Shown here piece after piece: positions 3,600-60,600 of a stretch of DNA of 64,000 nt. Location: the NCBI RefSeq assembly GCF_004324835.1, contig NW_021163026.1:2035271-2099270 (forward strand). Reading direction: 5' to 3'. The first letter of the stretch is position 1, and each line of letters begins with the position of its first letter. The translations under genes were made by a program, and so were the position numbers. The notes below the pieces were generated by a model that saw only the letters and a list, made by a program, of their open reading frames with translations, made no database searches and was not told the origin of the DNA. Origin of the DNA: Dendronephthya gigantea. Lineage: Eukaryota.

Positions 3600-6500
3600 A
3601 TGAGTAAAACTTATCCCAGTGAACGCTGCTTTCACGTCGCTCGTAACGTATGCATTTCTAAGCTGCAAGAGCTCAGCGATCATGATTTCCGAGCGCTTTT
3701 ACCTTCGCTTGTGAGGATGTCACAGTGTCCTAGTTTGGACGAGAGTTCACATTGGCAAGAAGCAAAAAAAGAAATTCAAAAATTGTTATGCGGTATGGAG
3801 ATAGTGAACTCCATTGTAGGCTTGCTCTCAGTGGATTTTGGATGTTTAAGGTATGTAAGTTTTAACTGCAATTGCGCGATCAAAGATTTCGTCTCAAAGA
3901 TTTCGTCTCGATAAACTGACAGTGAGTAGTGACCTGTGTTATTCTCAGACAAGATTGCTTGAAAGAAAAACAGATTCAACGTAAGCTTGAAGAGAATGGT
4001 CCAAACAATCACAGTGCTTTGATAGAGGCTTCCAGGGTGGGTTTAGTGTTGGATTTTGAACAGAGTGAACCATCCAGGAGGCTAAGATTGGTCCTAAGGG
4101 AGCTTCTTCGCGTTATGAGCCAGGTATTTGGAAATTGCTGATGGATTGCATCACCTGTGTTCCAACCCTAATTTATATTCATGATAAAATTCTAGTCGTC
4201 AGAAAACAGAGAGTTCTCAGCTCTTGAAAACTGTGAATTTTTTGAATGTGAAGTTTATATGGAAGACATTTGTGATGTATTGTGCATTGCTCAAGCTGGT
4301 GAGTAAAATTGTATTGCTTTGAGATCTTTCTGTGCTATCTGTTGAGGAATAATTGCCATTCTCAAATTATTTTCTCCCTAGAGCTTTCTGAACTTTTCCC
4401 ACTTGATGAAGTGTCAAAGGCCCTCTTGAGAGTTCCAAATGGTCCATGGTTTATATGCCGCTTGCTCGTAAATTTCCCGGATTATTTTGAGCAAGGTAAC
4501 AGCAGAAAGATTCATACTGAGCTTTTCATACTAAGTTTCATACTAAGATTCATACTAAGTTTGTTTAGTTTAGGTTTCCTCCCGTAGTAACACTGGATCA
4601 ATAAGATATGCTACTTACTGGACCTCTAGAAAGAACAGTTTAGAACTGATAGAGCTATCCAGTATAAATAAAGTTAGTTTAGTTTAGGTTTTCTCCTGTA
4701 GTAACACTGGATCAATAAGAGATGATCCTTACTGAACCTCTAGGAAGAACAGTTTAGACACTGATACTTAGTAAAACTGATATCCAGTAAAAATAATATC
4801 CAGTATATGTAATTTACAGTGTGTTCAGCTCTGTTAACCAAACAAGACTTGAAAGCAAACAATCCATTTCCATCCTATATTCAAACCAAGGCTCTGCATC
4901 ACCTCTGTAAGATGAACCCTGACTACGCTATGACCATCCGTAGCGAGGCTGTCAAGAATTGTTGCCTGCCAGAACTGACTGTAAAGCTTACGCTGGACTG
5001 TCATCTTGATAGCGGCGAAAGACGAGACTTAGTTGAGTTTGTCAGTGGGCTACTGTTAGGCAGTGATATTCGTGTTAGAAAATGGTTTGCACATTTTATT
5101 AAGAATGGTCAAAAAGTATGTTTATCTATAAAGTTTTTGAATGTTTTATTGTGTGTAGAAAGGAATTAGTTGATCTTGTTGAATTCTCACTTGTAGCATG
5201 AAGGTAGTGTGTCCAACACTGCACTGACGCAGCTCCGTGAAGAACTTCTGAATGAAGTTGTGGCAATCACCCCCCCTGGACATAGGGAGAGGATCAGGAA
5301 GGAGTGGCAGAAGGGAAGAAAGGGGCAAGAGGGGATGTCTGAGGGAAAGCGGAGGATAACAGTTGATGAACAAGATAAAGAAACATTGGAAATAATTGAA
5401 GGTATAACTGGCAGTGATTGACCATTTGCCCAGGCAGAGAAATTAAGACTAAAACTAGTTGTAAATCAAAATCCATATTTTGGTCAAAGTCTTATGATAT
5501 CTTGTGAAATAATTTGTTTGGCCTCAAAATTATATCTCATATCCTCCTAGCAATGGACATGTCAACAGATTTTGAAATCGTCCAAGAGGAAGCTCAAAGC
5601 TCATCCCCAGGCCAAAACGATATGCCAATGGATACGAGCGAACAACCAACAACCTTGCTGGAGAAAGATGTGATTAGTGCAACTGCTATTTTGAGGCTGT
5701 TCTGTGCGCTGAAGGGGATTGCTGGGATGAAAATAAGCAACAAGGAGTCAGATGAACTTGTGTGTCTGATAACCAGTCAAGCACCGCAGACTGCCGCTGG
5801 AGCACGGTTTGTTACAGTCGGGTTGTGCACCATGTTGGCTTGTTCTGGTATTGTCAGGTAAGGAGTGATTTAGACTAGTCTGGTTTAAAGGTCCCAATTC
5901 AATTTTACCAGATCCAATTCACTTTTGATGAATGTAAATTTCATGTGAGATCACCTTAAGTAATACCAAATGATTCATATTGAGTCAAACTGGAAGAACT
6001 CTTCTCACATGTGACTGAGGTCAGTGGCAGATTCAGGGTTGGGCAGAATAAATTACTACAGCTAAAAATCGTAATAGCATTGGTAGATTTTTATTTAAAA
6101 ATATTCTGTAGAAATCCGTGACCAATAGCGTTGGTATTGAGGTATTTTGAATTTAAAATTAAGCCTTTTAATTTATTCTGCCTAACCCTAGATCCGCCAC
6201 TGACTGAGGTGAAATTATTAATAGACAACTGCATATTACAGAAATCAAACCTCAGTCACAGAGATGAAAGACAATGTACTAACCACTGTGTTTGGTAGAG
6301 TCAAAGTGGAAGCATTCTTCTCACATGTGACTGAGGTGAAATTATTAATAGACAACTGGATATTACAGGAATCAAACCTCAGTCACAGAGATGAAGGACA
6401 CATGTACTAACCACTGTGTTTGGTAGAGTCAAAGTGGAAGCATTCTTCTCACATGTGACTGAGGTGAAATTATTAATAGACAACTGCATATTATAGAAAT

Positions 6501-9500
6501 CAAACCTCAGTCACAGAGATGAAGGACACATGTACTAACCACTGTGTTTGGTAGAGTCAAACTTGAAGCACTTTTCTCACATGTGACTGATGCATATGAT
6601 TTATTTTTAGTACCAGCGAACAAGAACAGGAAATGATCAAATGGATAAAATGGCTTTCGAAAGAAGAATCCCACTACGAAAGCTCCACGGGTCTCCATAT
6701 CTCATTTGGCGAGAGCCTTCTGCTGACAGCGATTCATTTTCATAGCAATAATTTGGAAGCGATTACCGGTCTCGTTAGCTCCACGCTTGGGATGAGGGTA
6801 AGACCGGGCACTCTGACGAGGATAAAGACGATATTCACGCAAGATTTATTCCCCGAAAAAGTAAGATTTGTGCTAGGAACTAACTACACTACTTTATACT
6901 GCGGCTTAACTATGTCTAAGTACTTTTATTTGTGCAAAACTCGTTCAACTAATCCAGGTTTATCACTGGGTAAAACCTTCACTAACTTTATACTGGATAA
7001 CTCTATTAGTTCTAAACTGTTCTTCCTGGAGGTCCAGTAAGGATCACCTCTTATTGATCCAATGTTACTACAGGAGGAAACCTAAACTAAACTAACTTTA
7101 TTTATACTGGATAACTCTATTAGTTCTAAACTGTTCTTCCTAGAGGTCCAGTAAGGATCACCTCTTATTGATCCAGTATTACTACAGGAGGAAACCTAAA
7201 CTAACTTTATTATACTGGATAGCTCTATCAGTTCTAAACTGTTCTTCCTAGAGGTCCAGTAAGGATCATCTTTTATTGATCCAGTGTTACTACAGGAGGA
7301 AACCTAAACTAAACTAACTTTATTTATACTGGATAGTTCTATCAGTTCTAAACTGTTCTTCCTAAAGGTCCAGAAAGGATCATCTCTTATTGAGACGTAG
7401 CTATTTTTTTCCAGGCAATAACAGAACACGCAGTGAGAGTTGCCGTGACTGATCAGTTAACAGCAAATGACTCAGGCTTTCTTCCAGTTCATTGCGTCTA
7501 TCACTTGCTCAAGAACAGAACTTTCACGAAACATTCTGTCCAAGTCAAGGTGCGTGTCTGGAACAAGAATAATTCCTTACATTATTCCTTACGAATGAAT
7601 ACTGTATCACTCCAGGTTATGATTCTCGGTCATATGAACATCTTTTGATGTTTTACCCAGGACTGGTTGTACAAGCAAATTTTATGCTCCTCCAAGCCAC
7701 TTCATCCTCTCCTTGTAAATCTTATTGACGTGTTCGTGACGTCAGTAGTCATGCCGCTGCCTAGCAAGCATCGTAGACTCACGGGCAATGTCACAGTGGA
7801 AGGATTTTCCGAAACTGATATATTGAAGGTGTTTAAAAGCCAGGTAATAAATGTTCAAAAACTTGGCCTGCTAAACCAAACGCATGTTCGACGAGCAGAA
7901 CCATTTAACCTTTGATTCAAATTATTGTTTTCTTTTCACAGCAAAGAAATTCGTCGTCAAAAACATCTCAAGCTAATCTGACAGCACAGTTGTTAATATT
8001 GTATTATCTGCTTTCTTATAAAGACTGTTGTTTATCCAACATGAAATCTTTAGGTACGTTGTAGAATACTACCTACACTGGACAACTACGTTTGAGATAT
8101 CTTTCTCAGGTAGTTCAGACACAAACCACGACAGCTTATTGTAGAATACTACCTACACTGGACCACTACGTTTGAGATATCTTTCTCGGGTAGTTCAGAC
8201 ACAAACTACGTAATTCATTGCTAACCACTAAACTATATTCTCACAGTTGCAAACAACCATCATCCTCCGGACTATTCCCGTTCGCTCTACTCGCAAATTC
8301 CGATCAAATATCTCCTGCAACAAGCCAGGAAATCACAAGAACATTACCGAGATCTTTATCCGCCATTACTGCGCCTGCTCGTCACGTACTACCCACAGTT
8401 ATGTCTGGTCGAAGACTGGTTATGCGAGGAAGATGGTGCAGAGAAACACACACAGGAGTCGAATATTTTATCCACGACAAATCTGACACCACTCGCTGTT
8501 AGCCAAGGTTGTTGTTATCTTATATTGCAAGTGCATGCAATTTACTTTGCTTTGACAGTTGTATGATTGCTATCAATCGCGTTTTTCGTCCCGTCACCAA
8601 AGAATTCACAAGTCACTCTCATGTCTAGTTTATGACTGTCTTGATAATATAAACTTAGATCAAAACAGAAATAGCATTCTGCAGTAGATTTTAGTTAAGA
8701 AATTGACAATAAATTTGCATTCTTCTTTCAGTTTTAGCCAACCTGCGTCAAAATCCCACTATGACTATGTTGACGTTGCTGAAGTTGAACAAACAAGATC
8801 CCAGGCTCCTGATTCCCTACGTTGATGCTGTCGTCGAGGGATTGCGCATGGCCCTGGACCCTAGTGTGTGTCGTCGTGTGCAAATATTGCTGAAGGACTT
8901 GTGGATGAAACTTAACACGATGATACCCAGAAGGTATGCGAAAATGCTGCGGTTTTTGGGAAGATTGTGTTTTAGTTGAAAAGCAGTCAGGATCGCAGAA
9001 TTGTAGTTAATTTGTTTCAACTTTTTCAGGTTGTGGTTGTTGACGGTGAATAAGTTGTGCGATCAAACTACAGAGTCGACACCTTACCTTGATGATGAGC
9101 TAATTAAAGATCCTCTTACAGCACTGAGATGTGACCAAAAAATATTCAGGTACAAGATTTTTAGACTTCTAGGTCTTCAGGATGGACAGAGCTTAAAGTT
9201 AGTTTAGTTTAAGTTTCCTCCTGTAGTAACACTGGGTCAATAAGAGATGATCCTTACTGGACCTCTAGGAAGAACAGTTTAGAACTGATAGAGCTATTCA
9301 GTATAAATAAAGTTAGTTTAGTTTAGGTTTCCTCCTGTAGTAACACTGGATCAATAAGAGATGATCCTTACAGGACCTCTAGGAAGAACAGTTTAGAACT
9401 AATAGAGCTATCCAGTATAAATAAAGTTAGCTTAGTTTAGGTTCCTCCTGTAGTAACACTGGATCAATAAGAGATGATCCTTACTGGATCTCTAGGAAGA

Positions 9501-11469
9501 ACAGTTTAGCCATCCAAGATAAAAAATGTTGAAACCAATGAAATATTTACTACATGATGGCCGTTAATGTGTTGTCTAGATGTGCACCGATATTCACAGT
9601 TATTACCCGCGTCCTCATGGGATATTTAGCGGCTTCACGTGCGATGCTGAATCAACATATTCTGGCGAACAGTAATCCTGGCCCAAGCGCCTCGGGTACT
9701 TCATGTTCCAATCCTGAACAGGAGCGAGAGGAATTGAAGTCTGCGTTATTAGCAGCACAGGAGAGCGCTGTTGTGCAAATATTGTTGGAGGTCTGCCTGA
9801 AAACACCTGAAGAAAAGCAGGTCAGAATGAAGATGATATTAACCTCTCTAATACAGACACCTCTCTAATACAGACACCTCTCTAATACAGACACCTCTCT
9901 AATACAAACACCTCTCTAATACAGACACCTATCTAATACAGACATCTATCTAATACAGACACCTCTCTAATACAGACATCTCTCTATTACAGACACCTCT
10001 CTAATACAGACACCTCTTTAATACAGACACCTCTCTAATAGGAACACATCTCTAATACTGACAACTTTCTGATTTTTTATTTCAGAAGCATGGGGGAAGC
10101 ATGCAAAAGTGTGAACTTCGAGAGATTCAATGTCTCGTTTGTTCAACTTTACATCAAATGTTCATAACCGATCCAAAATTGGCAAAGCTTGTTCATTTCC
10201 AGGTGACTATGCTTGGTCTTCTAGTGTAGATTCCATCAATATTTTATGATCTTATTCCTTTGTTAAATATCTAGGGATATGATCCAGTGTTACTACCGGT
10301 CACCGTTAATGGTATTCCATCCATGCATATCTGTCTAAGTTTTATTACAGAATTATTAAATCAACCGGAGTTAGAAAAGCAGGTATGAATAAAAATCTTT
10401 ATTGCATTATAAATCAACACGTTTGAGATATCTTTTTCAGGTAGTTCAGACACAAACCACGACAGATTATTGTAGAATACTACCTACACTGAACCACCAC
10501 GTTTGAGATATCTTTTTCAGGTAGTTCTGACACAAATCACGACAGCTTATTGTAGAATACTGCCTACACTGGACCACCACCTTTGAGATATCTTTTCCAG
10601 GTAGTTCAGACAAATTTGACATCACATTTGAATGATATTATTCCCTGTTTCAGCTCTTTGCTGTCCAGTTATCTTCATATTTATGCGTTCAATTTCCGTT
10701 GCCAAAAGCTTTGGATGTAGCCAAGTACGTCATAAGTCGCATGACGTCTTTGTGTGAGGCGTTGCCTGGCGACAGGTTGGCGAGCTTCTTTATCCCAGCC
10801 TGTGAATGTCTGTTGCGTTTCTGCCGTGCTTTCCCGCCTTTATCGATGGATACGTCATCATTGCTGATGATGATTGGTCAACTGACTGCGTCCCGTGCGG
10901 CTGGAGGCTGCGAAGACGAACTTGGTAGGTTAGCAGTATGAAGATACCTCCAAGAGAAATAAACACCTCTCTAATACAAGCGCCATTCTAATACAGACAT
11001 CTCTGCATTACAAACACCTTTCTAGTACAGACATCTCTCTAAGGGCACACCTTTTAAATACTGACACATTTCCAATACAAACACCTCCCCCAAAATGACA
11101 CTGGTCTAATACAGACACCTCTCCAATACAGCTACAGTATCTCTCTGATACAACCAATTCTCTCTGAAAAAAACAGCTTCTTCCAACCATAAGATGTGTG
11201 ATTATTCTTCTTATTTTACAGAATTATCTCGCTATTACAATCTACTTCAAGATTTGCACAAAAACGCAGAAGCTGGACGTGACATTTTGGAGGACCTTGG
11301 GTTCGAAGACGAAGATATTAGTGAAGAAAGTGAACAAGTGTTTTGCAAAGTCAAATCAGACATCATTCCTGGTTCAAAGCACATCGTACTTTATAATGTA
11401 GTTAGACAGACTTTCAAAGACTTAGTTCATTTGTGTGTCATAGAGAAATATGGCCTTTCTAAAAGCTGA
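3600..11469 (+). CDS. INTS2: Integrator complex subunit 2-like gene. About 18 exons spliced from the ORFs at 3558-3914, 3929-4141, 4309-4587, 4819-5169, 5209-5421, 5514-5861, 6633-7040, 7433-7648, 7667-7915, 8218-8502, 8761-8979, 9554-9868, 10699-10941 and 11194-11469. Start ATG at 3600, stop near 11469.
   Basis: Consecutive + strand exon ORFs with GT donors and AG acceptors. From memory of the family, translated segments match INTS2: ELSDHDFRALLPSLVRMSQCP...EIVNSIVGLLSVDF; SRRLRLVLRELLRVMSQ; ALLRVPNGPWFICRLLVNFPDYFEQ; LCKMNPDYAMTIRSEAVKNCCLPELTVKLTLD; FVSGLLLGSDIRVRKWFAHFIKNGQK. The last exon ends YGLSKS followed by a stop. Confidence 0.7.
4563..4800. repeat. Repeat of about 115 bp, family R115 (core ...gtttaggtttcctcctgtagtaacactggatcaataagagatgatccttactggacctctaggaagaacagtttagaactgatagagctatccagtataaataaagttag...), two tandem units in an INTS2 intron.
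   Basis: The same unit recurs at 6975-7390, 9196-9515, 16858-17140, 25430-25660 and 60345-60560, plus a fragment at about 28395-28425. It occurs in both orientations and always as short head-to-tail arrays. Confidence 0.85.
5975..6600. repeat. Tandem array of about 4 units of a repeat of about 125 bp, each with an internal inverted repeat (gactgaggt...acctcagtcac), in an INTS2 intron.
   Basis: Units at about 6230-6355, 6355-6480 and 6480-6600 are nearly identical. The first unit is interrupted by the MITE at 6022-6202. Confidence 0.85.
6022..6202. mobile_element. MITE with 34-bp terminal inverted repeats and an 8-bp target-site duplication, hAT-like, inserted into the first unit of the 5975-6600 array.
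   Basis: The left terminus is cagtggcagattcagggttgggcagaataaatta. The right terminus is taatttattctgcctaaccctagatccgccactg, whose reverse complement differs at 3 positions. The flanking actgaggt (6014-6021) is duplicated at 6203-6210, whereas intact copies of the host repeat read gtgactgaggtgaaatt uninterrupted. Confidence 0.8.
6975..7390. repeat. R115 family array of about 4 units, reverse orientation, in an INTS2 intron.
   Basis: gttactacaggaggaaacctaaactaaactaactttatttatactggata.ctctat.agttctaaactgttcttcct.gaggtccagtaaggatca... repeated four times. Confidence 0.85.
8052..8215. repeat. Two tandem units of a repeat of about 78 bp (ttgtagaatactacctacactggac.actacgtttgagatatctttctc.ggtagttcagacacaaac.acg).
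   Basis: Direct duplication. The same family appears with 3 units at 10412-10620. Confidence 0.85.
9196..9515. repeat. R115 family array of about 3 units in an INTS2 intron.
   Basis: Same unit as at 4563-4800. Confidence 0.85.
9846..10060. repeat. Minisatellite with a 19-bp unit (acacctctctaatacagac), about 11 copies, beginning at the donor side of an INTS2 intron.
   Basis: Direct tandem repetition. A degenerate second array of the same unit lies at 10960-11160. Confidence 0.9.
10412..10620. repeat. Three tandem units of the 78-bp repeat seen at 8052-8215.
   Basis: acgtttgagatatctttttcaggtagttcagacacaaaccacgacagattattgtagaatactacctacactgaaccacc is repeated. Confidence 0.85.
10960..11160. 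repeat. Degenerate array of the ctctaatacagacacct minisatellite.
   Basis: cacctctctaatacaagcgccattctaatacagacatctctgcattacaaacacctttctagtacagacatctctctaa... Confidence 0.7.
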
Positions 11470-11688: not shown

Positions 11689-14600
11689 ATGGCTTATCCT
11701 CCACCTCAAGGGAACTTCTCTTACCAGCGTGCCTATCCGCCAGACTACGAGCAGAATCCTTATCCCCCACCTATAGGATTTCAAAACTACATTGCGGCTA
11801 ACCCTGGCGCTCCTCCGACCCAAAATCAACCTTACCCTCCACCGACAACCGTCGCTTATCACGGCGCGCCAGAGCCACGGACTCTGAATGAACCCAGACC
11901 GACAGCAAGAAACGACGTTCCCGAAGTCGGATTTGAAGGATTTTCAAGACGATCTAACCCACCTTCGGCTCAGTCAGCATCTGGTGTTGAACTTGAAAAC
12001 GTCGAAGATCTACCACACGATATTCACACGAAAGAACCGGAGGAACAGTTGTCAGATAGTTCTGCGACCAGAATTGAGGTGTGTACTGTGTAGTTCATGG
12101 TTTCTGGTTTGAAATCTGCTCCACTATCATGTTATTTGATTGGTTTTAAGTTCTAGTAGTGTTCTAGAGATATAGTTAGATCCTGTAACTTGTAGATCGG
12201 GCGATAAAATGAATGCCTAACTCGCTAACTACAATATTTGGCTATATTTCTTTGTAGTTTAATAAAGTATGTGTTTACTTTTCGTTGCGATAATAATACA
12301 TAATCCTTTCGCATTAGATATTAAAACATGACAAAATCTGGCTTTTATTTGAAGCTAAAAAACAGTAAACTTTGATTACTATTCGTATTTTGCTTTACAG
12401 AGTTATTTAGACAACGTAGTATAAAAGCTAGTGGGGTGTAGTTTTAGATATGTCATTTGAAAATATTGGTTTCCAATAGTAATATTTTTTTCAAAAGTTC
12501 TAGAAGTATTTTGATTTGATATTGTCTAATATTTGATATTGCAGTAGTTGTACAATTTTCGTGCCAAAATTGTGTTTGGGCGACGGATTTTGTCATAGGA
12601 GCAGTATTAAACTTCAAAACAAAAGCGAACCTTCTGGAAATAAAACCGTAGCTCCAATAATTCAATAGTTCGGGTCATTTTGAATAAACTATGTAGCTAA
12701 ATAGTAAATACGTACTTTTAGGTATATTTCATGTCGTAGGTCAAATTTTAAAGGAACTATTATATTTAAACATGAAAATACAGTATTGCATTTATGTCAA
12801 TGCTCACTTTACTTGTATGTAGCATTATCATGTTATTAAGGACTGAAACACCTGTTCATTTGTTGCTAAATATATTGAGTACTAGCCTATCCAAAAACAC
12901 AGGTAACATCATAGTTCAATTTTACCTGCTGTGTTGAAGTTTTGCTGAATAATTGCCCTCAATTATATTAATTTAGTTGGAGAACCAACCAAAGCCGTTA
13001 TACTTTCGAGATGGCAGGAGAAAGATTGATTATATTCTTGCCTATCAAGATTACCCGGACAAACCAATGGAGTGGCAGGAAAAGAGAAAGGATAAACGGG
13101 AGCATTTTGAAGCAAACTTGAAGGAATATGGGCTGGAACTTGAGCAAGAAGACTTTGATGTAAGATTAAGCATTTAAATAAAGGCTCATTTACATTTGCA
13201 ATTCTTGCTGGAATTTTATGTGCAATTTGTTCTTTTGATAGATGTGAACGAGTAGTTAGTTACGAATGCATTGATGTATAAGAGTTCTGATTTGAACATC
13301 AGTAACCAATTCACTTGTTCACATCTATCAAAAGTTGCACATAGGGTATATAAACAAGCCTTAAGAATCATCTATGATTGATCCAGAGTTACTCCAGGTC
13401 GAAGTCAACTGCAAATTGAGAATTGTATTTTATTGGAAATGTGACACCAGTTGCAACCAGAAACCATAAAATAACATTGTGTTTGATACTTATAACAGGC
13501 ATCAAAGGATGGTAAGACAGTCTACATCAAAATTCATGCTCCATGGGAGGTGTTAGCTTGTGTAGCGGAGGAAATGTCCATGAGAATGCCGACCAAGGTT
13601 AGGAGGATAGTTGTAATCTTCAGCCCCCTTGCTCTTCTGCTAATCTCAATTCATTAGTTTTACATTACTTTACCCCTTAGTGACGGTCAGTTGATCAGGC
13701 AAAAGACCACCAGGCATTGAATGACTATTGTAAATCTGCCAATTTGGTGGCATCGCCCCAGATACACTTGTTTTTATTAGGTTTTAGTCTGTCTAACAAG
13801 AAGCATATAGTGATTTCACATGGCATGATGATGAACTTATCATATCATTCTTCCTTTCAGCGAAATGATTTGGAAACAAAAGGCTTGATTGACAAAATAT
13901 TTAGTCGTTTTGGAGGCAGAAGTCCATTTGAAATCAGCAGCGAAGATGTGCCCAAAGAAGAAAATTATTTCACTTGTGCTTTCCAGAGAGATAGACTTGA
14001 GAAGTGAGCCTGCCTTACATCTTCTGAGACAAGAGCCTGACATTTGTATGATGGAAAAGAACTCTGCAAATTAATCCATCCTTGATTTTTTGACAGTTTT
14101 AAAGGTCATGAAAACAAAGAAACCTTCTTCAGCAGCAGTCAAAGAAGTCTGATTGTGAGTTATTGTGAAAATGTAATTCTCCCCTTTTCAGGAGAGTCTG
14201 GAAACCTAAATCTCTGAGAAAATATAATATTTCCCATGAACAATAATCTACCTTAATTTCTTCCAGGTCTATCGTATTTTAAAATCAACAGCTTATGACG
14301 AAGATAAGAGCAAAATTGGTAAGGATGGTCGTATGTATATAGATACACATATCATTTGACCACTTGAAAACCCACTCTTGGTGTCTGGAAATCTACCTGC
14401 ATGCCACACTTTTGTAATGCCACACACGTTTTTACAACAAAATGTCAAAACTATATTTGTGTTTCATGTAGGTGTTGATAGATTGGTATCAAATCTTTCC
14501 TATAATGCTGCGTATCCGCTACACGAGGTATGTAATAAAATCTGAGTCATTTGCATTCATATATAATATAAGAAGTATTTGTTTTGAACTTTAGCTCACC

Positions 14601-17600
14601 ACCTGAGGTGTAATTTATGTATTTAGGGGTACCACAAGCCCAGTTCAAACTCCTCAGAGAGAACCGAACGACAGGTATACAGGATAACAAACGAGATTCA
14701 TTGAATAACGGTAAAACAGACAAGGATTCGATTCTTTTTGACTTTTTTTTTTGCAGATCTTGTACGATGTTTGGGGGAAGTTCAAAAGATTCTACAAGAA
14801 ACAGCCTTTGAACTTGATAAGGTAATTTGACTGCATTTTGTAAAATATGTGAATTATCTTCTATGAATTTAACAGTTTTTGGCAAATCTTTTTTCCGTTT
14901 TCGTAGAAAATATTTTGGAGAGAAAATAGGCATTTACTTCGCGTGGCTGGGTGAGTTTAATATCAGCGTATCAGCGTGTGTTTCCGATAATAAACGTAAT
15001 AAATGTTAGTTACTTACAAACAGCTGCGTTTGACTGTGCATGTTGTACGGTGCAGTTGAAATTACTTAATTTCATTGCCAAATGTTTTCACGCTGGCAGA
15101 GTCTCAGAGAGAATGAACGCTGTTGAAAGTAATGTTTTGCCTTTTAAGATCATTATTTATTTATTCCACTTCATTTCAGCCAAGCATTTAGCATTTGTGA
15201 GAGTATCTCAAGTGTATTTGGCTTCAAGGTCAATATTTATTGCGTCTTTTTTAATTATTTTAGGTTTTTACACCATCTTGCTGTTTCCAGCCGCTGTAGT
15301 TGGTGTTATCAACGTTATTTATGGCCTGGCGAGACTTGGGGATTACACCCCAACGTATGTCCAAAATATTATACATTAGATATATTAAATATGATTTTAT
15401 TGTATATGTTAGATCTATTAAATATTATTTATTGTATGCGTTAGATATATTAAATATTATTTATTATGTACGTTGGATATATTTTGTTTTTAACTGTTAT
15501 AAAATCTTTCTAAAACTAAGATGAAGTACAGAAAACAAGTGAAGAACTATGTAGTCCTGGATGGACCAGGTGGAAACAAGTCTGATGAACTCAGTTGATG
15601 AACTCTGTGGATAAATATCAAATTGTTCTCTTTTTAGAAATATTATCTGTAATGAAACGCTTAAGGATAGATACGTCATGTGCCCAAGATGCGACAAAAA
15701 GTGCGATTATTTTCCGTTGTATCACACGTGTGGATATTCAAGGGTAAGCGTGGGTATTGGCAAATTTAAATTCTGAACAAACTGGCGAGTTCATGCATGA
15801 GTATATCCATATTTTATCTTTCACAGGCGGCTTATGTATTTGACAACGAGTTTACGGTTATATTTGCGATTTTTATGTCTCTTTGGTGTAAGTATAAAAT
15901 GTTCTACCACTTCACTTCCGTGATGGTTTGTGTTCCCAGTTTACGAGAATTCCTAAAACTTTCGTTTGCTTTTCACAGCGACCATGTTTCTTGAGTTCTG
16001 GAAACGGAGGCAGGTTGAGATCGCGTACAACTGGGATCTTCTGGGGTTTGAAGTCGAGGAGGTAATGTGGATTGGATGGGACAATTGTTTTAAGTATCCA
16101 GCATTATCCGTTATCATCCATCTCCATCCATCATAATCCCTCATCCTTTGTTACTCTACTGCATTTATCATCATCCCCCATCATCCTCTATTACCATGCT
16201 TTATCCTCAATTGCCATCCCTCATCCTCCATCATGATCCTAGTCCATCACCTGAAATATCCATCCATTATTCTAGGAAAGTATTCGTCCAGAGTACGAGG
16301 TGGTCTGCACGGAAAAGCGAAACAATCCCATCACCCAGGTAGCCTTATCACTGGTCTTAGTACTAGATTCAGTGTACTAGATTCATTGGCGATTATAAAC
16401 TAAAAGAAAGCTAGTGTATATATCATATATTCATTATCTAGGTTCAAGAGCCATACTATCCATCAACTTTGAAATGTCCGCGGTTTGTTTGCAGTTCAGC
16501 TTCGGTTTTTCTTATGGTACGTAATGTTTGAAAAACTGACAATTATTGATTCCAAAGCACATTGCATTCCCGACATATTTCAACGATTTTTACCAGGTTG
16601 CAACCTCGGAATGGTTCTTGCAAATCATAGCCAAAATAAGAAGCTTTTTTGTTGTCGTTGCAGATTTGTCTTGTTGTATTAGCCGTCTTTGGTGTCATTG
16701 TCTACAGAGTTTCCGTGTTCGCTGCGCTGACAGCAGCTTACGACAGCAATATTGGTAGCATCAGTTTATCCGTGACGGCTTCTGCTGCTGTAATCAATCT
16801 TATCATCATTCTGCTGCTCAGTTTTGTAAGTTTTGGTAAATTTTGCTCTCTACTGAACAGCTCTTAGTTCTAAACTGTTTTTCCTGAGAACCAGTAAGGA
16901 TCATCTCTTATTGATCCAGTGTTACTACAGGAGGAAACCTTAACTAAACCAACTTTATTTATACTGGATAGCTCTATCAGTTCTAAACTGTTCTTCCTAG
17001 AGGTCCAGTAAGGATCAACCCTTATTGATCCAGTGTTACTACAGGAGGAAACCTAAACTAAACTAACTTTATTTATACTGGATAGCTCTATCAGTTCTAA
17101 ACTGTTCTTCCTAGAGGTCCAGTAAGAACTAGTAAAACGCCGATAACGTGTGAATATTTGAATTACTATATTCAATGTGTTCTTAGGTCTACGAGAAGCT
17201 AGCCTACATCTTAACAGATATGGAACTACCACGGACACAGTCGAAATATGAAGACAGCTTTACCATCAAAATGTATCTGTTCCAGTTTGTCAATTACTAT
17301 TCATCTTTATTCTACATCGCATTCGCAAAACTCAAGTAAGTTGGATTAATCATGGTGGACACTGCTGTGTCACTGCGGACACTGGTGTAGTAATATTCAA
17401 CCAACACATTAACTACAATATTTCCTTGCACTTTTAGCCCTGGGAGACCAGGAGACTATCACAGGATCTTTGGTTTTCGTCAAGAAGAGGTAAAATTATT
17501 TCATGAAGATATTATTCAAAGGCTTTAGTGAATTGAAAATTGACCAAATGAGTATTGTCTAGTTCTATCGACATGGTGTCATATTGCCGGCAAATGTGTT

Positions 17601-19753: not shown

Positions 19754-20490
19754 AACACCACTGCATACATACCCAGGCTTACTATATATATATATTACAG
19801 CAATATATATTTTTTAAAACGCGTCCTATCTACATATGCTGCTGTAAATCCTTTAATTCCAAAGATTGCTTGTAATCCCTCGTAAAAAATACAGCAGGCT
19901 TGACCCTTGTAATAACAGGATTGTAAATCATGTCTTGACCTTGTATATCCTAAGTCAATATTGCATTCTGGCAACGATAAGTATACCCAAGTTGTTTCTG
20001 GGTTATTCACGGCAATGATAAGGCAAGGGAATCCGAATGTACAACGATTATTTGCCGAAGAATATAATGTCCAAAAGTTGTCGAACAGTAGAAACTATTG
20101 TGTTTGTATTAGTAATTGTGCAGTAATTAAAAAACATCCTTTTGCGATTGTGGTTTTCTGTTTTGTATGAGCGCCAAAAAGTGTTGTTAATTTAGTAAAT
20201 AAACAAGCGCTCACTGTGTTCGTTTATTCTTTACAAGGAAGTTGTTGTATGCGAACCGTCTCTCTCCATTTTTCGAATCCACGTTTTTATCAACATCTCT
20301 TTATGTTGGAATAAAGAATGCTACATACAACAGTAGATTTTAAATATATTTTATTTTAAATAATTCATGAGTTCATATTAAACTATGGTACTAATAACTT
20401 AGGAAAACTTTTAATAAAATTATTTGAAGGAACTCCTTCATATGCTAGCTAATTTCGTCTTGTAATACATAGTTTACAAGCTGTTCAAAT

Positions 20491-25300: not shown

Positions 25301-25429
25301 TGGTTAGTGTATACAAAAATGATGTTTGAATCCATGGATAATATTTTGATTTGCGCTCACTTTCGTCGACCTCGTGTATTTTAATCGACAGCCGTCGCTG
25401 AACAGAAGTTCAATATCAGTCAGTCTTAA

Positions 25430-25660
25430 GTATTCTTCCTGGTGGTCTAGTAAGAATCATCCCTTATTAATCCAGTGTTACTATGTGGTTCAGTGGTCAC
25501 TACAGGAAGGAAACCTAGACTAAACTAACTAGGTATTCTGTGATCATTAATACTGGATGGCTCTTTCAGTTCTAAACTGTTCTTCCTATAAGGATAATCC
25601 GGCTCTTATTAGAATTGTATATCAATTCTAAATAGTTCTCTTTCAGAGGTCCAGTGATGT
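25430..25660. repeat. R115 family, degenerate copies in the intergenic region between the two PCS genes.
   Basis: ggtctagtaagaatcatcccttattaatccagtgttactat...ctacaggaaggaaacctagactaaactaact...ggatggctctttcagttctaaactgttcttcctat matches the family with mismatches. Confidence 0.6.
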
Positions 25661-33299: not shown

Positions 33300-37950
<4,651 letters not shown>

Positions 37951-43792: not shown

Positions 43793-45043
43793 ATGAAACT
43801 ATGAATGGTAGTTTGGTTCAATTTTGAATTCAAAGTTATTTTTTGTCCAGCAAGGATTTTTAACACTCATTGGCTCTATCATTGTTCTTTCCAGAAATGT
43901 AACATTGTCCTCATGATCTACTGTTATCACTGAGTGTGTTCTAAAATTTCATAGAAAAGAAACAATAAAATGAAGATGAAGTGTAATCTATTCACTATAC
44001 TATACAAGCTTCCCCTGGACCTTTCAGGCCAAAAAAATCTTAAGCTTACTATCAAGGATAAAGGCCTGGCCTGGAACCATTTACACTTAGACAGACTTGA
44101 TGAAGTCACTTGTATAAACAACCCACCTGGAGCAATAGTTCATTTCAGGAATTTTCACTGATATTGCTGAGAGTCTTTCAAGGAACATGTCAGGGAGGCC
44201 CTCATCTTCAGGACCGCGAAAGGCATCATCAACACCATACCTAGGAATAAGTTACTTGTGAAAGATGTGTCAAGATGATTTGCAGCTAGATGACTGGCAG
44301 ATGGTAATTAAGAATGTCTCTCCTGTTTTTACCTAGTCTCATCAAGTAACAATTCCAAAACTTTATCAACTTTCTCTTGCATTGAACTCTCTTCTTTCAC
44401 AATCTTTTCAAACTGTTTTTTTCCCAAATCAACTTTCTTCCAACCATAATCCAAATATCGATTACTAAGACCATAGATTCCTGGCGTCAAGTCCTGCAAA
44501 GGTCGACTCTCTTTGTTGCAATAATAACTGAAATTCATTTCAGTTTTTCCAGGAATGACTTCACCAAGAATCAAGTTAAAACCACCATATTTGTGGCCAT
44601 TTTCTTCAACATTTTCTAGAAATGTTTTGGGTTTTTCCTCAGATTTAAGAAAATCAGACACAAGTTGCCCTCGGCCAATTTCATCCTCGCGTTTAAATTT
44701 TGGACTTTGTCTGTAGTTCGTGAGGATTCCAACTTTACCACTTTTAGACATCCCAAGCCAGGTACCACCTTCTTTTCCAGGAAAAAGATCAATACCTATA
44801 AAGGTCCATAATTGGTAAATAATTATATCATCATTATTCTAACTGAATTAATAAAGTCATCATTATCTCTCTAGTTGTGACCATTTGTTACATCCCACGG
44901 CACATCACCTGATATAATATCTGGTCGTTTTTCCCACCAATGGAGCTCTTTTGTTGGTCGACTAGTGTATTCATCTCTGTTCACACCAATTATAACTTTA
45001 TATCCATCATGTATTGGATTATCTGAGATGGCCAAAAACACAA
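43793..45043 (-). CDS. TANGO2: TANGO2 (transport and Golgi organization 2 / DUF833) copy A, four exons.
   Basis: Exon 1 encodes MCIVFLAISDNPIHDGYKVIIGVNRDEYTSRPTKELHWW (compare human MCIIFF...LILAANRDEFYSRPS). Exon 2 encodes GKEGGTWLGMSKSGKVGILTNYRQ...GFNLI...LTPGIYGLSN. The last exon encodes VDHEDNVTFLERTM (compare VDADGHVTFTERSM). Confidence 0.8.
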
Positions 45044-51200: not shown

Positions 51201-52118
51201 TGCTCCTTCCCCCCTCTCTCCAAAATCCTTGGTACGCTTCTGATGAATTCGTTGTTTTAACGAACGTGGTATATTTGGATCGCTGGACCGCTCTATGCCT
51301 CTATCCATTGAACTTTGAATCTTATATAATGACCGACATTGCTTGATAATTTAAGAATGTGCACTAAAAGATTTAAATCTGTAGCAAAATGCGTGTAATT
51401 CTTGTTTATCTTGTTTTTTAATGTTGTTTTTTTGCAGTTCTGATCGCCTCGCCAATGAAGCTATCGGGTAAGTTGATTCAGCTTGTAGCCATGTCATTGA
51501 CAACAATCCTGCGTGTTGTCATGGATGGTTGGGGCAGCGCTTTTGAAACGATGGGATTTTTGTTTCACTTAGAATTGCAATGGCGACGAAGGAGAACATG
51601 TCGAGGCAGCGAGGAGCACTTTATCAAATATCATCCAGGATGGGAGGAATAACTGGTATCCTTTTGACAAAACTAATCAACTTTTTGCGGGACAAAGTCC
51701 GTTTACACTTGCAATTTTAGCTGCGATTTTATGTCGATTTTCTTCTTTTGATAGATGTGAACGAGTGATTAGTTACGAATGTTCTGATTAATAAGAGCTC
51801 TTATTTGAGCATCAGTAACTAATTCACTCGTTCACATCTACCAGAAGGCGAAAATCGCACATGTGAACGAGCCTTGACGTGAATAGTTACTACCAACTGT
51901 TGATATCTAATTGGTACTTTACTTAATATAATGATGGTCATCTACCTGCAGACCATTTATATTTTGTCTTTTTAACCTTAACCAACACCACAGGTCGCTT
52001 TCCCGCACTGAACAATTTAATGCAGAAAATAAATTTGAGAAAACGACGGGATGCAATAATCGTGAGCGTGGTCATAGCGGTTTGTCTGATCTTGCTTATT
52101 CTCTACGCTACAAGGTAG
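45274..52118 (+). CDS. GOSR1: Golgi SNAP receptor complex member 1 (GS28) gene. Nine exons: 45274-45307, 45444-45540, 45632-45719, 49986-50124, 50281-50321, 50900-50974, 51438-51467, 51572-51655 and 51995-52118.
   Basis: Every exon keeps its phase and matches GOSR1 from memory: MAASNSLKEWEDLRRKARQIENELDLKLVSFSKLGTSYSH; SDKSPLLNNSSSEHMFQTMSLEIGDLLSK; MHTLQRHRDILKDYSQEFTKTK; ANIEAYIEREELLG; TDLYLKENEHIRNSDRLANEAIGIAMATKENMSRQRG; and a C-terminal TM anchor RFPALNNLMQKINLRKRRDAIIVSVVIAVCLILLILYATR then stop. Confidence 0.9.
46113..49039 (-). CDS. TANGO2: TANGO2 copy B. Four exons: about 49039-48896, 47581-47128, 46914-46808 and 46204-46113. It lies entirely inside GOSR1 intron 3 on the opposite strand.
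   Basis: The exon structure and splice phases match copy A. ORFs 48868-49131 and 47124-47546 are about 85-90% identical to copy A at the protein level (MSTGGKIGILTHYRQ...GFNLILGEVIPGKTEMNFSYYCNKESRPLQDLTPGIYGLSNRYLDYGWKKVDLGKKQFEKIV is identical over long stretches). Confidence 0.8.
46362..46790. mobile_element. One full copy (46362-46572) plus two partial copies of the 18436-18643 MITE family, in an intron of TANGO2 copy B and of GOSR1.
   Basis: gttgttacactatgcaatttttcctgcaacttgcaatacaattcttcgtttgagagatgtaaattt...aatttacatctcttaaaagtagaattgcattgcaagttgcaggaaaaattgcaccgtgtaacatggcc. The fragments are ggcgctgttacactatgaaattttc and agaattgtattgcaagttgcaaggaaagttgcatagtgtaacac. Confidence 0.75.
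49262..49533. mobile_element. Palindromic element (putative MITE) with terminal inverted repeats of about 45 bp and an inner inverted repeat.
   Basis: The outer arms are gggggcgtagctagaagcttaattgggggagtgcatattcatatattc ... gaatatatgaatatacatcccccaattaagcggtctagctacggccc. The inner arms are gcagtggcgtagccagcccgac ... gtcaggctggctacgccactg. Confidence 0.65.
51705..51880. mobile_element. Second copy of the hairpin MITE family M-gtgaacgag, in GOSR1 intron 8.
   Basis: ttttgatagatgtgaacgagtgattagttacgaatg...catcagtaactaattcactcgttcacatctaccagaag. This is about 85% identical to the 13195-13345 copy. Confidence 0.75.
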
Positions 52119-57641: not shown

Positions 57642-60600
57642 GATGGACGCTCATTTGGTTGGATATGGGAGTTCTTCTGACGAGGAAGGAACGTCGAAAA
57701 AACACAGAATGGAGTCACAAAAAGTAGGTTTGAATATTCCCAGGTTTAGTTTGATATATCTAGTGATTGCTGTGGTTTTCTGCACGAGTTTCAGTGCTTA
57801 ATTAGGAAGATATGACAGGGAATTGAAGACAATGTAATGAATGTATTCAATGTGGTTCATGTTTGCTAAATTTCGAAAGGAAAAAAAGCGTGGTGGCGGG
57901 TGCTTATTACAAAGAGCATGCGTGAAGAACTGAACTGAAGGTTTTGGAATTAACTGAAACCTTCAGATTAAAAGTTGTTTTGGAAAACAACAAGTCCAAA
58001 AATTAGACTGAAAATGTTTCATTTCTTCTAGATGAGGCATTTTCCAAAAGACAGAAACTTCAGAAAACGTTCTTCGTCACCAGAAGACAAGGATGAACTT
58101 TATGAACCAGAAATTGCATTGATGAACAATGGTCCACAAATACCACAAGATATCGGAGATGAACTACATATGGACTCGGAACAGACGTCTCCTGGTAATG
58201 TACAAAATTGTTTGAGATCCACTTCTCCAAGTCCAGTAAAACATCTCCCAGGATCGGATGAACCAAACCAAAGTAAAAATTCTTAGAATGGTGTGATTTC
58301 TCAGAATAATGTGATTTCTCATAATGATGTCATTTCTCAGAATGGTGGGTGAAATTGATTAAAAACTTTTCATTTCTTTTTCTTTAGCGCATAGAAAGAG
58401 TCAAAGCAGAAGTCCTACGGTGAGTATTTCTGATAGAGTTTAGTTTGGACAACATTAACCACCAACACTTGCCCCTCGAAACTGAAAATATTGATCTATT
58501 CTGGTCTGACATCCAATTGTACTAGTGCATTACATCAGTTCCAAACCCACAAGGGGTGAGTGTTGGAAGCATTTGAAGCAGCATAACTGTTAGTCACCTT
58601 CAAACAAACTCTTTCTAAAATAATTCAGCCCATTTGTTCTAAAACAATTCAGCGCATGAAATAGTTTAGAATTTTAGAAAAATTGAAAACCCTGCTAAAA
58701 AGGAGGGTGTGTTTAGATATTAATATTCCTATGATGTTCTGACTTATTTGCAATGTAAAATACCAAACTTTGTTTGCCATTATTGCTAATATAACAGTCA
58801 GAGAAAGAGACCAGGTCGAATATTGATGAATTTGGTTGTCAAATACGACACCCTTCCAAACCAGAGGTTAGTTTTGACACATTGTTTGGAATGTTTTAAT
58901 TGTAATACGTCATATTTGTTGCTCTTATACAAGCAGTACATAAAGCTAAACCGTTCAGTGCCACCCCCTTGGCCCAGCACTTGCACATGCACCAGAAAAT
59001 TGCCCCTTGAAACTTCAGAGTTAGTGTGTGAAATCATCACAGAGATTTTGATAATCTATGGTGCACCCACTCCCGATGTTATCTGCACTCCCCCATGCCC
59101 CTGTAACTGAAGGGTTATCAGTCTATGATTCCCCTGATCCTCAGCTTAATCCCCCCCCCCATGATACTACACTCCTCTATAATCCCAGCCTCCCCAAGTA
59201 AGGCGCATGTTTCAGTACCTATATATAGTGAAAATGAATCAAATTCCTTGATACTAATCTTTTTTCTGAAGGATTGTATTTTACACTGACATGTAGGATG
59301 AAGACCGCGTTGGAGGACGGGATATCAAGAGATCATCGTCACGTGATCGTAGACGGTCAAGAAGTCGAAGTAAAAGTCACGATCATAAGGAGAGGCGAGG
59401 TTCGTGCTTGGAAAGAACTCAACCTTTTGTTCATGTTTGTGGTCTTAAGAGGTCGTCTCGTGAAGTTGTGGCAGCTATTTTTTCTTTTCAGGATCACTGC
59501 GAGACGATAAGGACGGAAAACGGAGGGAAAGTAGAGACAGAAGTCCCCGTTCAAAGAAAGATAGAAGTCCTAGAAAAGCTCGAGATGGGAGTCCTGGAAA
59601 AGATGCAAGTCCTAGAAAGGATAGGGGTTCGAGAAAGGATCGGAGTCCAAGAAGAGAACGAAGTCCCAAAAGGGATCGGAATCGTAGAAGGGAGCGAAGT
59701 CCTAGAAATGATCGGAGTCCGAGAAAGGATCGAAGTCCTAGAAAAGATAAAAGTCCTAGAAGAGGAAACCGGAGTCCTAGAAGAGACCGAAGTCCCCGTC
59801 GTGGAGATCGTAGTCCCAGGAGGGGTGGGGACAGGAGTCCCAGGAGGGGTGGGGACAGGAGTCCCAGGAGGGGTGGAGACAGGGGGCGTGGTTCTACGAG
59901 AAGCTGGTCTCCGGATCGTCCGCAAAATAGACGTGAAAGGAAAGCGATTTATTTAGGAGGACCAGCCAAGCCAATACCACAACGTACGTCCTTCGTTCAC
60001 AGTTATTCTTCATACACATTTATGTATCCCAAATATATCTTCGTGATTAGATTATTGTGTTTATATGAATTCCAGTTCATGGAATCGAGTTCGCCGTGTG
60101 ATATTCATTTCTTTGTTTATTCCAGCGAAGGAGAAGGAGACTATGTCTTCAGAAGAGGTGATGAAGAAACTCGCACAAAGACAGGAATCTTTGAAGCATG
60201 AGGCTCAGGCAAACGCCGCAACACATAACTTGCCAAGTTACCTCAATCCTTCAGTCGTGAATCCACAGCTCTACGCTAAACAACAAGAGAAGAGAAAACT
60301 GCTCTGGAGCTCTAAGAAAAAAGATGAGGTCTCTAAAATGTACTTTTGGAAGAACAGTTTAGAACTGATAGAGCTATCCAGTATAAATAAAGTTAGTTTA
60401 GTTTAGGTTTCCTCTTTTAGTAACACTGAATCAATAAGAGATGATCCTTACTGGGCCTCTCGAAAGAACAGTTTAGAACTAATAGAACTATCCAGTAAAA
60501 ATAAATTTAGTTTAGTTTAGGTTTCCTCCTGTAGTAACAATGGATCAATAAGAGATGATCCTTGCGGGATACCTTTACCAAATACCACTTTTTCAAACAA

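Follow-up and report, generated by a model that had tools for sequence, protein, structure and literature searches.

The window analysed here, a 64-kb stretch of DNA from the octocoral Dendronephthya gigantea, contains six arrays of a 114-bp unit, with 1.4-3.6 copies each and on both strands, as well as three solitary pieces of the same unit. Five of the six arrays are located in short introns, three in INTS2, one in an anoctamin gene and one in an RS-rich gene. TRF reports five arrays at a 114-bp period in the window (A1, A2, A3, A4 and A6), whereas A5 is an additional, degraded locus obtained by BLASTN with the 114-bp consensus, which also recovers the TRF loci with E = 1e-22 to 1e-54 per monomer. 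From A1 to A6 the strand order is +, -, +, -, -, +. The arrays and fragments are as follows:

A1, 4557-4766, plus strand: 1.8 copies, phase 3 to 97; hosted by the INTS2 intron 4496-4819, with degraded repeat sequence continuing to about 4805 and a 12-mer microsatellite at 4507-4562.
A2, 6987-7393, minus strand: 3.6 copies, phase 44 to 114, then degraded linker; in the INTS2 intron 6861-7414, antisense to INTS2, with a degenerate extension to about 6952.
A3, 9194-9509, plus strand: 2.8 copies, phase 1 to 89, 97% identity to the consensus, in the INTS2 intron 9150-9579.
F3, 10280-10299, minus strand: solitary 20-nt core fragment, phase 27-46; weak (E = 0.002) and maybe a chance match.
F1, 13362-13398, minus strand: solitary partial unit, phase 27-63, 86% identity.
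A4, 16851-17126, minus strand: 2.4 copies, phase 60 to 110; antisense to its anoctamin host gene, whose intron 16826-17186 has just 25 + 60 nt of non-repeat sequence besides the array.
A5, 25424-25588, minus strand: about 1.4 copies, 85-90% identity, old and degraded; intergenic, between two head-to-head phytochelatin-synthase genes.
F2, 28382-28421, plus strand: solitary partial unit, phase 8-47, just past the first-exon donor of phytochelatin synthase b.
A6, 60348-60569, plus strand: 1.9 copies with TRF limits of 60350-60563, phase 75 to 68, in the intron 60329-60637 of the RS-rich (RSRC2-like) gene, beginning 19 nt past the donor.

An earlier note on this DNA had described a dispersed repeat of about 115 bp that always forms short local arrays, at seven loci and in both orientations. 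TRF and BLASTN confirm the dispersed repeat, its short arrays and its two orientations, but the unit measures 114 bp and the arrays number six. Nor does "always" strictly hold, given the three solitary partial units in the window and single units in other species (L009 18636-18745, L010 11021-11136). The host genes proposed at that time are borne out for the three INTS2 loci by tblastn with the Paramuricea INTS2 and for anoctamin by a Pfam match on the exon adjoining A4, as is the phytochelatin-synthase identity of the neighbours of the intergenic array. The gene named RSRC2 has no Pfam match, and the name is compatible with an RS-rich coding repeat at 59584-59782.

The arrays do lie close to exons, as had been remarked, starting 19-126 nt past the inferred donor and ending 14-70 nt ahead of the acceptor. 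This is because the host introns are so short without the array, being only about 85-150 nt once it is subtracted. Arrays account for 57-78% of host intron length. Exon closeness as a targeting signal was rejected, as INTS2 introns without an array span only some 72-126 nt and the array-bearing introns are ancient. Indeed, the introns holding A1, A2 and a 128-bp array are positioned within 1 aa of Nematostella INTS2 introns, with those after Paramuricea residues 214, 481 and 566 corresponding to those after Nematostella residues 213, 451 and 536; this comparison covered these three introns, which include two of the three INTS2 introns with 114-bp arrays. Since the positions are common to Nematostella, the arrays entered old introns and did not create them. 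Together, these data show that most arrays occupy introns that were already there and very short, in a genome densely packed with genes. The host splice sites sit in unique flanks outside the arrays, and relative to the host gene the two orientations are about equally frequent (50:50). Neighbouring introns hold other tandem-repeat families in like manner, for example the 128-bp array in INTS2, the companion families having units of 80, 128, 17 and 123 bp. Consecutive introns of one gene can carry arrays, three in INTS2 and six in the L006 gene.

The unit has a GC content of 36% and lacks CpG. AATAAA spans the unit junction (phases 113-4), and an AT-rich linker, ATAAATAAAGTTAGTTTAGTTTAGG, is a (TTTAG)-like microsatellite that could pass for a SINE-type tail but is present inside every unit. 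Direct reading of the sequence reveals a hairpin with a 6-bp stem (GGATCA/TGATCC), followed 10 nt further on by CTAG. Splice-site-like motifs are found on one strand (AAA/GTTAGT and CCTCCTGTAG/) as well as on the other (CCA/GTAAGG, TTCTTCCTAG/ and ACTAAC). Folded as circles, the two strands of the unit show nothing unusual (z = -0.8 and -0.9), and the hammerhead core CTGANGA is absent from both. At the gathering score, Rfam has no match in the window, and at E <= 10 array A2 yields only two noise matches (E = 5.7 and 7) and no ribozyme, while ARAGORN finds no tRNA-like sequence across the window.

The repeat is abundant in at least three octocoral species and in further samples, with about 26 more independent arrays in about 150 kb of other octocoral contigs and a repeat peptide in 621 representative ORF clusters of public assemblies. 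Related loci other than L001 were found via a repeat-containing ORF or the DNA pattern, and the density and intron-adjacency observed there are therefore biased. The longest arrays in the roughly 210 kb of octocoral sequence covered have 11.3, 8.8 and 8.3 units, and this sequence contains no long reservoir array. Six sample sets, those of D. gigantea and P. clavata among them, have one and the same consensus (114/114 positions), and a seventh differs from it at one site, the whole comparison resting on 136 monomers. INTS2 protein identity between D. gigantea and Paramuricea clavata is 71%, and the introns of the L003 and L010 source species show no alignment to the window. Monomers match the consensus with mean identities of 79 to 99%. 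The consensus is thus conserved across octocoral families, in soft corals and sea fans that are only distant relatives, while single copies decay neutrally, and its invariance argues for strong purifying selection on a master template.

Monomers in the window are 93.5% identical within arrays versus 92.7% between arrays, a pattern repeated in four other samples, and 40/46 window variants are private to one array. The private variants and the equal identity within and between arrays imply birth as a multimer from a consensus-like master, followed by neutral decay. Among independent loci, 27/32 are multimers and the arrays have 1-11 units. These observations show that new copies come as preformed multimers (1 to about 11 units), unlike a single SINE-like copy, and support the satellite-like mobile dispersed unit that the earlier note had offered as one option. 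Insertions are old and neutral, as A5 and F2 both have orthologues in a related species (L001 6856-7126, with the same boundaries as A5, and L001 9886-9920), whose non-coding identity to D. gigantea is 72-83%. The orthologous A5 array had at least two copies before the species split and has many indels; its flanks are 76-77% identical between the species, and the array has decayed as well.

Copy number also changes after insertion. The L010 paralogous introns have common flanks and a common 3' junction, yet contain 1.0 versus at least 4 units, the 11-copy array of L006 has recurrent internal deletion variants, and internal duplications are seen at L006 16938-18227. The L010 intron 11019-11207 has only about 31 nt that are not repeat-derived; its paralogue has kept a 70-nt non-repeat 5' intron part, and the short L010 version is therefore a deletion. 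Overall, the arrays show neutral decay after insertion, with copy number at times altered via unequal exchange or deletion. We note that units 3 and 4 of A2 have three variants in common.

In all-against-all BLASTN, the 300-nt flanks of 36 arrays matched one another only between orthologues or paralogues, where neighbours overlap, or through additional copies of the unit, and revealed no conserved flank, subterminal inverted repeat or 3' palindrome common to the loci. Target-site duplications at the array boundaries, for which the earlier note had asked, were looked for and not found, nor were inverted terminal repeats; the longest word common to both flanks of an array is at most 6 nt and never lies at the junctions. 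Array ends bear no poly(A) tails. Inverted termini and target-site duplications are detectable in the present data, since a foldback MITE with a TA duplication was recognised within an L010 array (7362-7977). Array ends fall at phase 16-24 in 12/31 cases (p = 2e-6) and starts at phase 1-11 in 12/31 cases (p = 1.6e-5), giving the preferred termini TAAAGTTAG... and ...AGTTTAGTTTAG. No array ends at phase 74, just past CTAG, and array length is near-integral in only about 9-10/30 cases (phases read by eye). These data show insertion in either orientation, without element-specific flanks or target-site duplication, at junctions that favour the AT-rich linker.

In the reading that we propose, and to which we give a probability of roughly 55%, the 114-bp unit is a mobile octocoral repeat, satellite-like and non-autonomous, that spreads by concatemeric copying and end joining. 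The multimer would arise by rolling-circle-type, concatemeric copying from an intermediate that is either a small circle or holds several units. This template may be RNA, with a borrowed reverse transcriptase making the copies, or DNA that was excised from a homogeneous reservoir array, and the product would then be joined to a break by end joining. A strict single-nick rolling circle expects the start phase to equal the end phase + 1, and only the near-integral arrays come close to this. A monomeric circle as template is disfavoured, because position-94 G/A variants are mixed inside arrays, and with no ribozyme match and an ordinary fold, nothing in the unit accounts for circle formation. Arrays in neighbouring introns could reflect local copying, but have no private variants in common.

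Multimers might also originate from linear multi-unit transcripts retroposed by a LINE or Penelope-like reverse transcriptase, with the 3' end fixed in the linker, 12-20 nt past AATAAA, and variable 5' truncation, which we regard as a possible, although less probable, route. The position of AATAAA and the clustering of ends at phase 16-24 would suit such a route, as would the resemblance of the (TTTAG)-like linker to LINE/SINE tail microsatellites, the star-like, master-copy variant pattern and the LINE reverse-transcriptase fragments in octocoral DNA (L012 4815-5798, with a (TAAA)-like tail near 6117). However, starts cluster as much as ends, unlike random 5' truncation, the expected 3' terminus is missing in about 40% of arrays, and poly(A) tails and target-site duplications are absent; moreover, no array is joined to a LINE, that of L012 stopping about 1 kb ahead of the array. 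Insertion of a single SINE- or MITE-like unit with subsequent local amplification by slippage or unequal crossing-over appears unlikely, as it expects identity within arrays to be far higher than between them, and the A5 orthologue already had its copies, with matching boundaries, before the species split. Single units nevertheless exist, A2 units 3 and 4 have their common variants, and the L010 paralogues and L006 duplications attest to copy-number change after insertion.

Host-level selection, which would keep the unit for a function in introns (for instance as a signal in splicing or chromatin, or as a source of small RNAs), is in line with the invariant consensus, the lack of CpG, the splice-signal-like motifs on both strands and the location of arrays inside genes. 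It is nonetheless very unlikely, since copies decay (A5 and its flanks have both diverged, and monomers depart from the consensus), orientation is balanced relative to the gene and no Rfam family matches. Introner elements are introns that derive from transposons, known in algae, fungi and other, mostly aquatic, eukaryotes, and here too repeated sequence fills most of many short introns in unrelated genes. The array share of the introns, the splice-site-like motifs on both unit strands and the near absence of non-repeat sequence at L010 11019-11207 might suggest that the arrays created their host introns, but this is barely credible, as the introns compared with Nematostella are ancient, the splice sites belong to unique flanking sequence, the short L010 version is a deletion, and the junction phases vary, so that the element cannot supply fixed splice sites. 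The copies are variable-phase arrays, not whole-intron units. Canonical Helitrons begin with 5'-TC, end in CTRR-3', carry a subterminal hairpin at the 3' side and insert between A and T. The earlier note had considered a Helitron/MITE-like element, and arrays as the central repeats of non-autonomous Helentron (HINE/DINE-1-like), Helitron or tandem-repeat MITE carriers would follow a known route for short satellite-like arrays in oysters and clams (PMC7492417). The absence of target-site duplications, as with Helitrons, and the GGATCA/TGATCC hairpin followed by CTAG would agree with this, yet the termini are TAAAG... and ...TTTAG, the hairpin and CTAG are internal with no array end there, and the 300-nt flanks of 36 arrays contain no conserved arm or 3' palindrome. 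A carrier is thus largely refuted and highly improbable; among its variants, a canonical Helitron was rejected on termini and hairpin position, and a tandem-repeat MITE (DTC84, pearl; bivalves) on the lack of common inverted termini and target-site duplications.

The family fits a known class of dispersed satellite-like short arrays, a type that includes the Drosophila 1.688 and dispersed human alpha-satellite repeats. The TCAST elements of Tribolium castaneum occur as partial or tandem monomers in short arrays, many of them in introns or near genes, with no common flank motif, and are proposed to disperse via rolling-circle replication of excised circles and reintegration (PMC3411249). The 114-bp arrays are alike in their head-to-tail or partial monomers, short length, lack of element-specific flanks and location in or near genes. 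They differ in that no long heterochromatic parent array is known for them, they are far denser (six in 64 kb, in several consecutive introns of one gene), their consensus is identical across octocoral families and their junctions prefer a specific AT-rich linker. Cg_HINE of Crassostrea gigas are non-autonomous Helentrons with satellite-like central repeats, flanked on the left by a 5' subterminal inverted repeat, an inverted repeat and a microsatellite and on the right by a 3' subterminal inverted repeat and a palindrome (PMC7492417); the DTC84 and pearl tandem-repeat MITEs of bivalves resemble them. Dispersed short arrays with monomers of 100-200 bp in gene-rich marine-invertebrate DNA, a microsatellite with the array and no target-site duplication are common to both, whereas the defining Cg_HINE flanks are absent from the 114-bp arrays. 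Metazoan non-LTR retrozymes, described in the coral Acropora millepora, mussels and axolotl, are type I hammerhead tandem repeats that spread through circRNAs, with a reverse transcriptase that copies the circle repeatedly proposed as the origin of their multimers (PMC7229834). Like the present family, they have small low-GC units that are dispersed through cnidarian genomes in anything from dimers to large multimers, and they lack an LTR, primer-binding site and polypurine tract. Membership was rejected, as the unit has no hammerhead core and no Rfam ribozyme match even at E <= 10; in addition, it is shorter than the 150-450 bp of retrozymes (PMC7229834) and its predicted fold is not unusually stable. 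A SINE of tRNA, 5S or 7SL origin was also rejected, since ARAGORN and Rfam find no Pol III head, most loci are multimers, and target-site duplications and A-tails are absent.

Tandem repeats account for 7.24% of the genome in D. gigantea (PMC6447388) and "Unknown" repeats for 32% in P. clavata (PMC7467007). The 114-bp family and its companions contribute a large share of intron length in the genes studied here and appear to be a substantial part of these fractions. The repeat also misleads gene prediction, as its translation appears within or at the end of many predicted proteins, the annotated farnesyl-pyrophosphate synthase model of Paramuricea among them, and the repeat flags octocoral host DNA binned into bacterial MAGs. 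The unchanging consensus alongside decaying copies points to an unusually constrained master or to repeated horizontal transfer. A more speculative and rather improbable idea is that the 114-nt unit is a whole minimal self-propagating module, its concatemer copied from a small RNA or DNA circle. If so, copying would need nearly every base, which would account for the invariant consensus, and the module would be retrozyme-like or satellite-replicon-like, without a known ribozyme and smaller than any described. Such a module might contain a new kind of self-processing motif or offer a platform to which a conserved enzyme binds.

The 114-bp unit forms five arrays in the window that are called by TRF and recovered by BLASTN with the consensus (per-monomer E-values 1e-22 to 1e-54), and BLASTN with the consensus additionally places one degraded array and three solitary partial units.

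Arrays and partial units of the 114-bp repeat in the window, with host introns inferred from GT/AG sites and reading frames
4557-4766: array A1, 1.8 copies; host intron 4496-4819
6987-7393: array A2, 3.6 copies; host intron 6861-7414
9194-9509: array A3, 2.8 copies; host intron 9150-9579
16851-17126: array A4, 2.4 copies; host intron 16826-17186
25424-25588: array A5, degraded
60350-60563: array A6, 1.9 copies; host intron 60329-60637
10280-10299: solitary partial unit
13362-13398: solitary partial unit
28382-28421: solitary partial unit F2

An earlier note had described seven loci of a unit of about 115 bp that always occurs in arrays. The dispersed arrays are real, whereas the count becomes six arrays and three fragments, the unit measures 114 bp by TRF, and the solitary partial units show that the restriction to arrays is not strictly true. 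The mixture of orientations across the window loci was borne out by BLASTN. Array boundaries were set by BLASTN and junction inspection, and a permissive Smith-Waterman extension that over-ran the AT-rich flanks was discarded. The unit has a GC content of 36% and zero CpG, and stops interrupt all six of its reading frames, which rules out a protein-coding repeat.

INTS2 spans ~3600-11466 on the + strand, as located by tblastn with Paramuricea clavata INTS2, the exon adjoining A4 encodes anoctamin (Pfam E = 5e-20), and A5 separates two phytochelatin synthase (PCS) genes arranged head to head; the first exon of one of them, 27717-28349, matches D. gigantea XP_028396614.1 at 210/211 residues. These host assignments thus agree with the earlier note, whereas its RSRC2 lacks Pfam support: the gene around 60 kb that hosts A6 gave zero Pfam matches, and its RS-rich coding repeat is compatible with RSRC2. 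The exon upstream of A6 (59584-59883) comprises 10.9 copies of an 18-bp coding repeat (DRSPRK...) followed by three copies of a 24-bp repeat, the RS-rich region of the presumed RSRC2 gene. The head-to-head PCS arrangement, 21553-22320 (-) and 27717-28352 (+), is also present in the compared loci L001 and L003/L004. Elsewhere in the window, two near-identical TANGO2-domain exons at 44329-44751 (-) and 47124-47546 (-), with 2.8 kb between them, point to a recent tandem duplication.

Array-free INTS2 introns measure ~72-126 nt and array-bearing introns retain ~85-150 nt once the repeat is subtracted, indicating that the arrays are insertions into minimal introns, which fits the earlier remark that they sit close to exons. 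In INTS2, the introns that follow Paramuricea residues 214 (A1), 481 (a 128-bp array) and 566 (A2) correspond to residues 213, 451 and 536 of Nematostella vectensis INTS2 (L005), where introns are likewise found. Thus, creation of introns by the arrays is refuted in the testable cases, and an introner reading falls because the host introns tested (A1, A2 and the 128-bp array) are ancient. We found nothing in the literature on introners in Dendronephthya, nor on assembly GCA_949826985. A Nematostella INTS2 intron (L005 7011-8168) contains a 121-bp unit repeated in tandem approximately ten times; every copy includes an exon-like segment 71-79% identical to INTS2 residues 577-604, making this a tandem amplification of exon-derived sequence within an intron.

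Further tandem families are present in the window, some of which occupy INTS2 introns nearly from splice site to splice site (128-, 80- and 17-bp arrays).

Other tandem-repeat families
6201-6590: 128-bp family, INTS2 intron
8059-8210 and 10418-10612: 80-bp family, INTS2 introns
9842-10063 and 10963-11131: 17-bp family, INTS2 introns
51738-51854: related copy of a 123-bp palindromic family, also at L006 9292-9778 and L011 18280-18393

The 80-bp and 17-bp families occur twice each in the 64 kb, with all of these occurrences confined to INTS2, and an 80-bp array begins at the first bases of its host intron. Fragments of the 80-bp/128-bp units are found at other octocoral loci (L006 19932-20146, L007 9584-9689 and L003 10755-10790). 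The 123-bp unit, present in 3.9 tandem copies in an L006 intron, matches its own reverse and is therefore palindromic and MITE-like.

The loci L006 to L011 were reached through the translated peptide of the 114-bp repeat, as nine predicted proteins continue past an exon into repeat sequence (six-frame peptide query). L006 carries seven arrays in 20 kb, six of which occupy consecutive introns of a coiled-coil gene, while an 11.3-copy array there is apparently intergenic. Seven arrays are present in 19 kb of L007, from P. clavata, and L008 to L011 contain additional ones. In an exhaustive HMMER search, the repeat peptide was recovered in 621 representative ORF clusters, of which 222 reach E <= 1e-10. 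The annotated farnesyl-pyrophosphate synthase of L007 (P0257; 10001-14804 of CACRXK020007514.1) has translated 114-bp units mid-protein, and the ending ...SINKVSLV of six or more further predicted proteins comes from reading past an exon into an intronic array; these repeat-bearing proteins are probably gene-model artefacts due to the repeat. A scan of bacterial genome contigs found L012/L013 (CBDATY010000004.1, 'MAG: Mycoplasmatales bacterium'), with an 8.8-copy array and 51 copies of a 33-bp minisatellite; this is evidently octocoral DNA, and probably host contamination of the bin. Two different 21-22-mers, scanned as exact patterns, matched zero JGI metagenome contigs, an exact-pattern scan of IMG/VR contigs likewise gave zero matches, and a look-up of contigs encoding the PCS ORFs of the window or Paramuricea INTS2 returned none on record.

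Two comparisons bear on the age of the family. Window 19271-37167 has a syntenic counterpart in the TARA Pacific contig L001 (72-83% nucleotide identity), in which both A5 and F2 have orthologues, so the family is older than that species split. A5 has unchanged boundaries and at least two copies in L001, is degraded in both species and has flanks that are 76-77% identical between them. The species of L003 and L010, which come from the same sample, has a PCS exon that shares just 80% protein identity with its D. gigantea counterpart, and the introns of this species show zero alignment to the window. Across 136 monomers, the majority consensus agrees at 114/114 positions between D. gigantea, P. 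clavata and four more sample sets, and differs at one site in a seventh; in INTS2 protein, by comparison, the two named species share only 71% identity. Averaged over the monomers of each array, identity to the consensus lies between 79% and 99%, which, together with the constant consensus, indicates a family long active around an unchanging master sequence. The invariance of the consensus is unexplained by any model considered.

Arrays share no flanks with one another, except for orthologues, paralogues and overlapping neighbours, and neither target-site duplications, for which the earlier note had proposed a search, nor poly(A) tails were found at the arrays. With respect to the host gene, the two orientations occur about equally often. 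Among 32 independent arrays with curated junctions, ends cluster at phase 16-24 of the unit (12/31, p = 2e-6) and starts at phase 1-11 (12/31, p = 1.6e-5), such that both termini favour the AT-rich linker ATAAATAAAGTTAGTTTAGTTTAGG; the other junctions are spread over the unit, apart from small concentrations at phases 44-50 and 58-61. In the window, 40 of 46 variants are private to one array, and monomers are 93.5% identical within arrays vs 92.7% between them, with four other samples alike. Arrays are thus born multimeric, copied from a template close to the consensus, and decay afterwards. On this pattern, they neither build up gradually from single units nor derive from neighbouring arrays.

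Copy number can shift after insertion, as seen in L010 and L006. Paralogous L010 introns carry 1.0 vs at least four copies; one has only ~31 nt that are not repeat-derived, while its paralogue retains a 70-nt non-repeat 5' part and shares the 3' junction, identifying the short intron as a deletion product. The array with more copies bears, in its AT-rich linker, a 616-bp perfect foldback MITE whose inverted arms are long and which is flanked by a TA duplication (L010 7362-7977). Internal deletion variants recur within the 11.3-copy L006 array. At the edges of A1, a 12-mer (4.5 copies, 4507-4562) and a 16-mer (2.2 copies, 4770-4805) look like the adjoining ends of the 114-bp unit, which suggests local slippage at the array borders.

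The family is therefore dispersed, long-lived, multimeric from birth, master-derived, without a carrier and neutrally decaying, and the satellite-like mobile unit entertained in the earlier note is the reading that stands. Its alternative, a Helitron/MITE-like element, does not: Helentron/MITE carriers are defined by characteristic flanks (PMC7492417) that are absent around the arrays, the preferred termini differ from the TC...CTRR of Helitrons, and target-site duplications are lacking. As the note had argued, the repeat is not a SINE, since no tRNA-like sequence was found in the window and Rfam gave no match at gathering score for the whole window, nor beyond noise at E <= 10 for A2. A retrozyme is ruled out by the absence of a hammerhead core from the unit and by its ordinary fold, which as a circle is no stabler than shuffled sequence on both strands (z about -0.8), and an intron-encoded snoRNA by the antisense placement of about half of the arrays and the lack of an Rfam match. 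The sole nearby LINE sequence, a 5'-truncated reverse-transcriptase fragment in L012 (4815-5798, Pfam RVT_1), terminates ~1 kb short of the array with an A-rich tail, which excludes the array as a LINE 3' UTR or other LINE part. By reasoning, neither a mitochondrial nor an rDNA origin accounts for the 114-bp periodicity across every species.

We suggest that the multimers would be made by rolling-circle-type concatemeric copying from an intermediate that is either small and circular or multi-unit, or alternatively may be segments of a homogeneous reservoir array, and would then be joined to breaks through end joining. Rolling-circle copying and reintegration of this kind is what PMC3411249 proposes for TCAST-like dispersed satellite repeats and, in a version with circles of RNA, PMC7229834 for metazoan retrozymes. 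A linear RNA copied by a LINE or Penelope-like reverse transcriptase is a serious rival, given that each unit junction is spanned on the + strand by AATAAA, which lies 12-20 nt before the preferred 3' terminus; against it, the starts of arrays are clustered as much as their ends, and the arrays carry neither tails nor duplicated target sites.

The 114-bp repeat is a genuine family, undescribed before: we found no paper matching it, nor one matching an 18-mer of the unit, and repeats of this sort are left without a class in the genome papers of both D. gigantea and P. clavata. It belongs to a known class, that of dispersed satellite-like short arrays, within which it is distinguished by how densely it occupies short introns of ancient origin, by termini biased to the linker and by a consensus that is constant across octocoral families.
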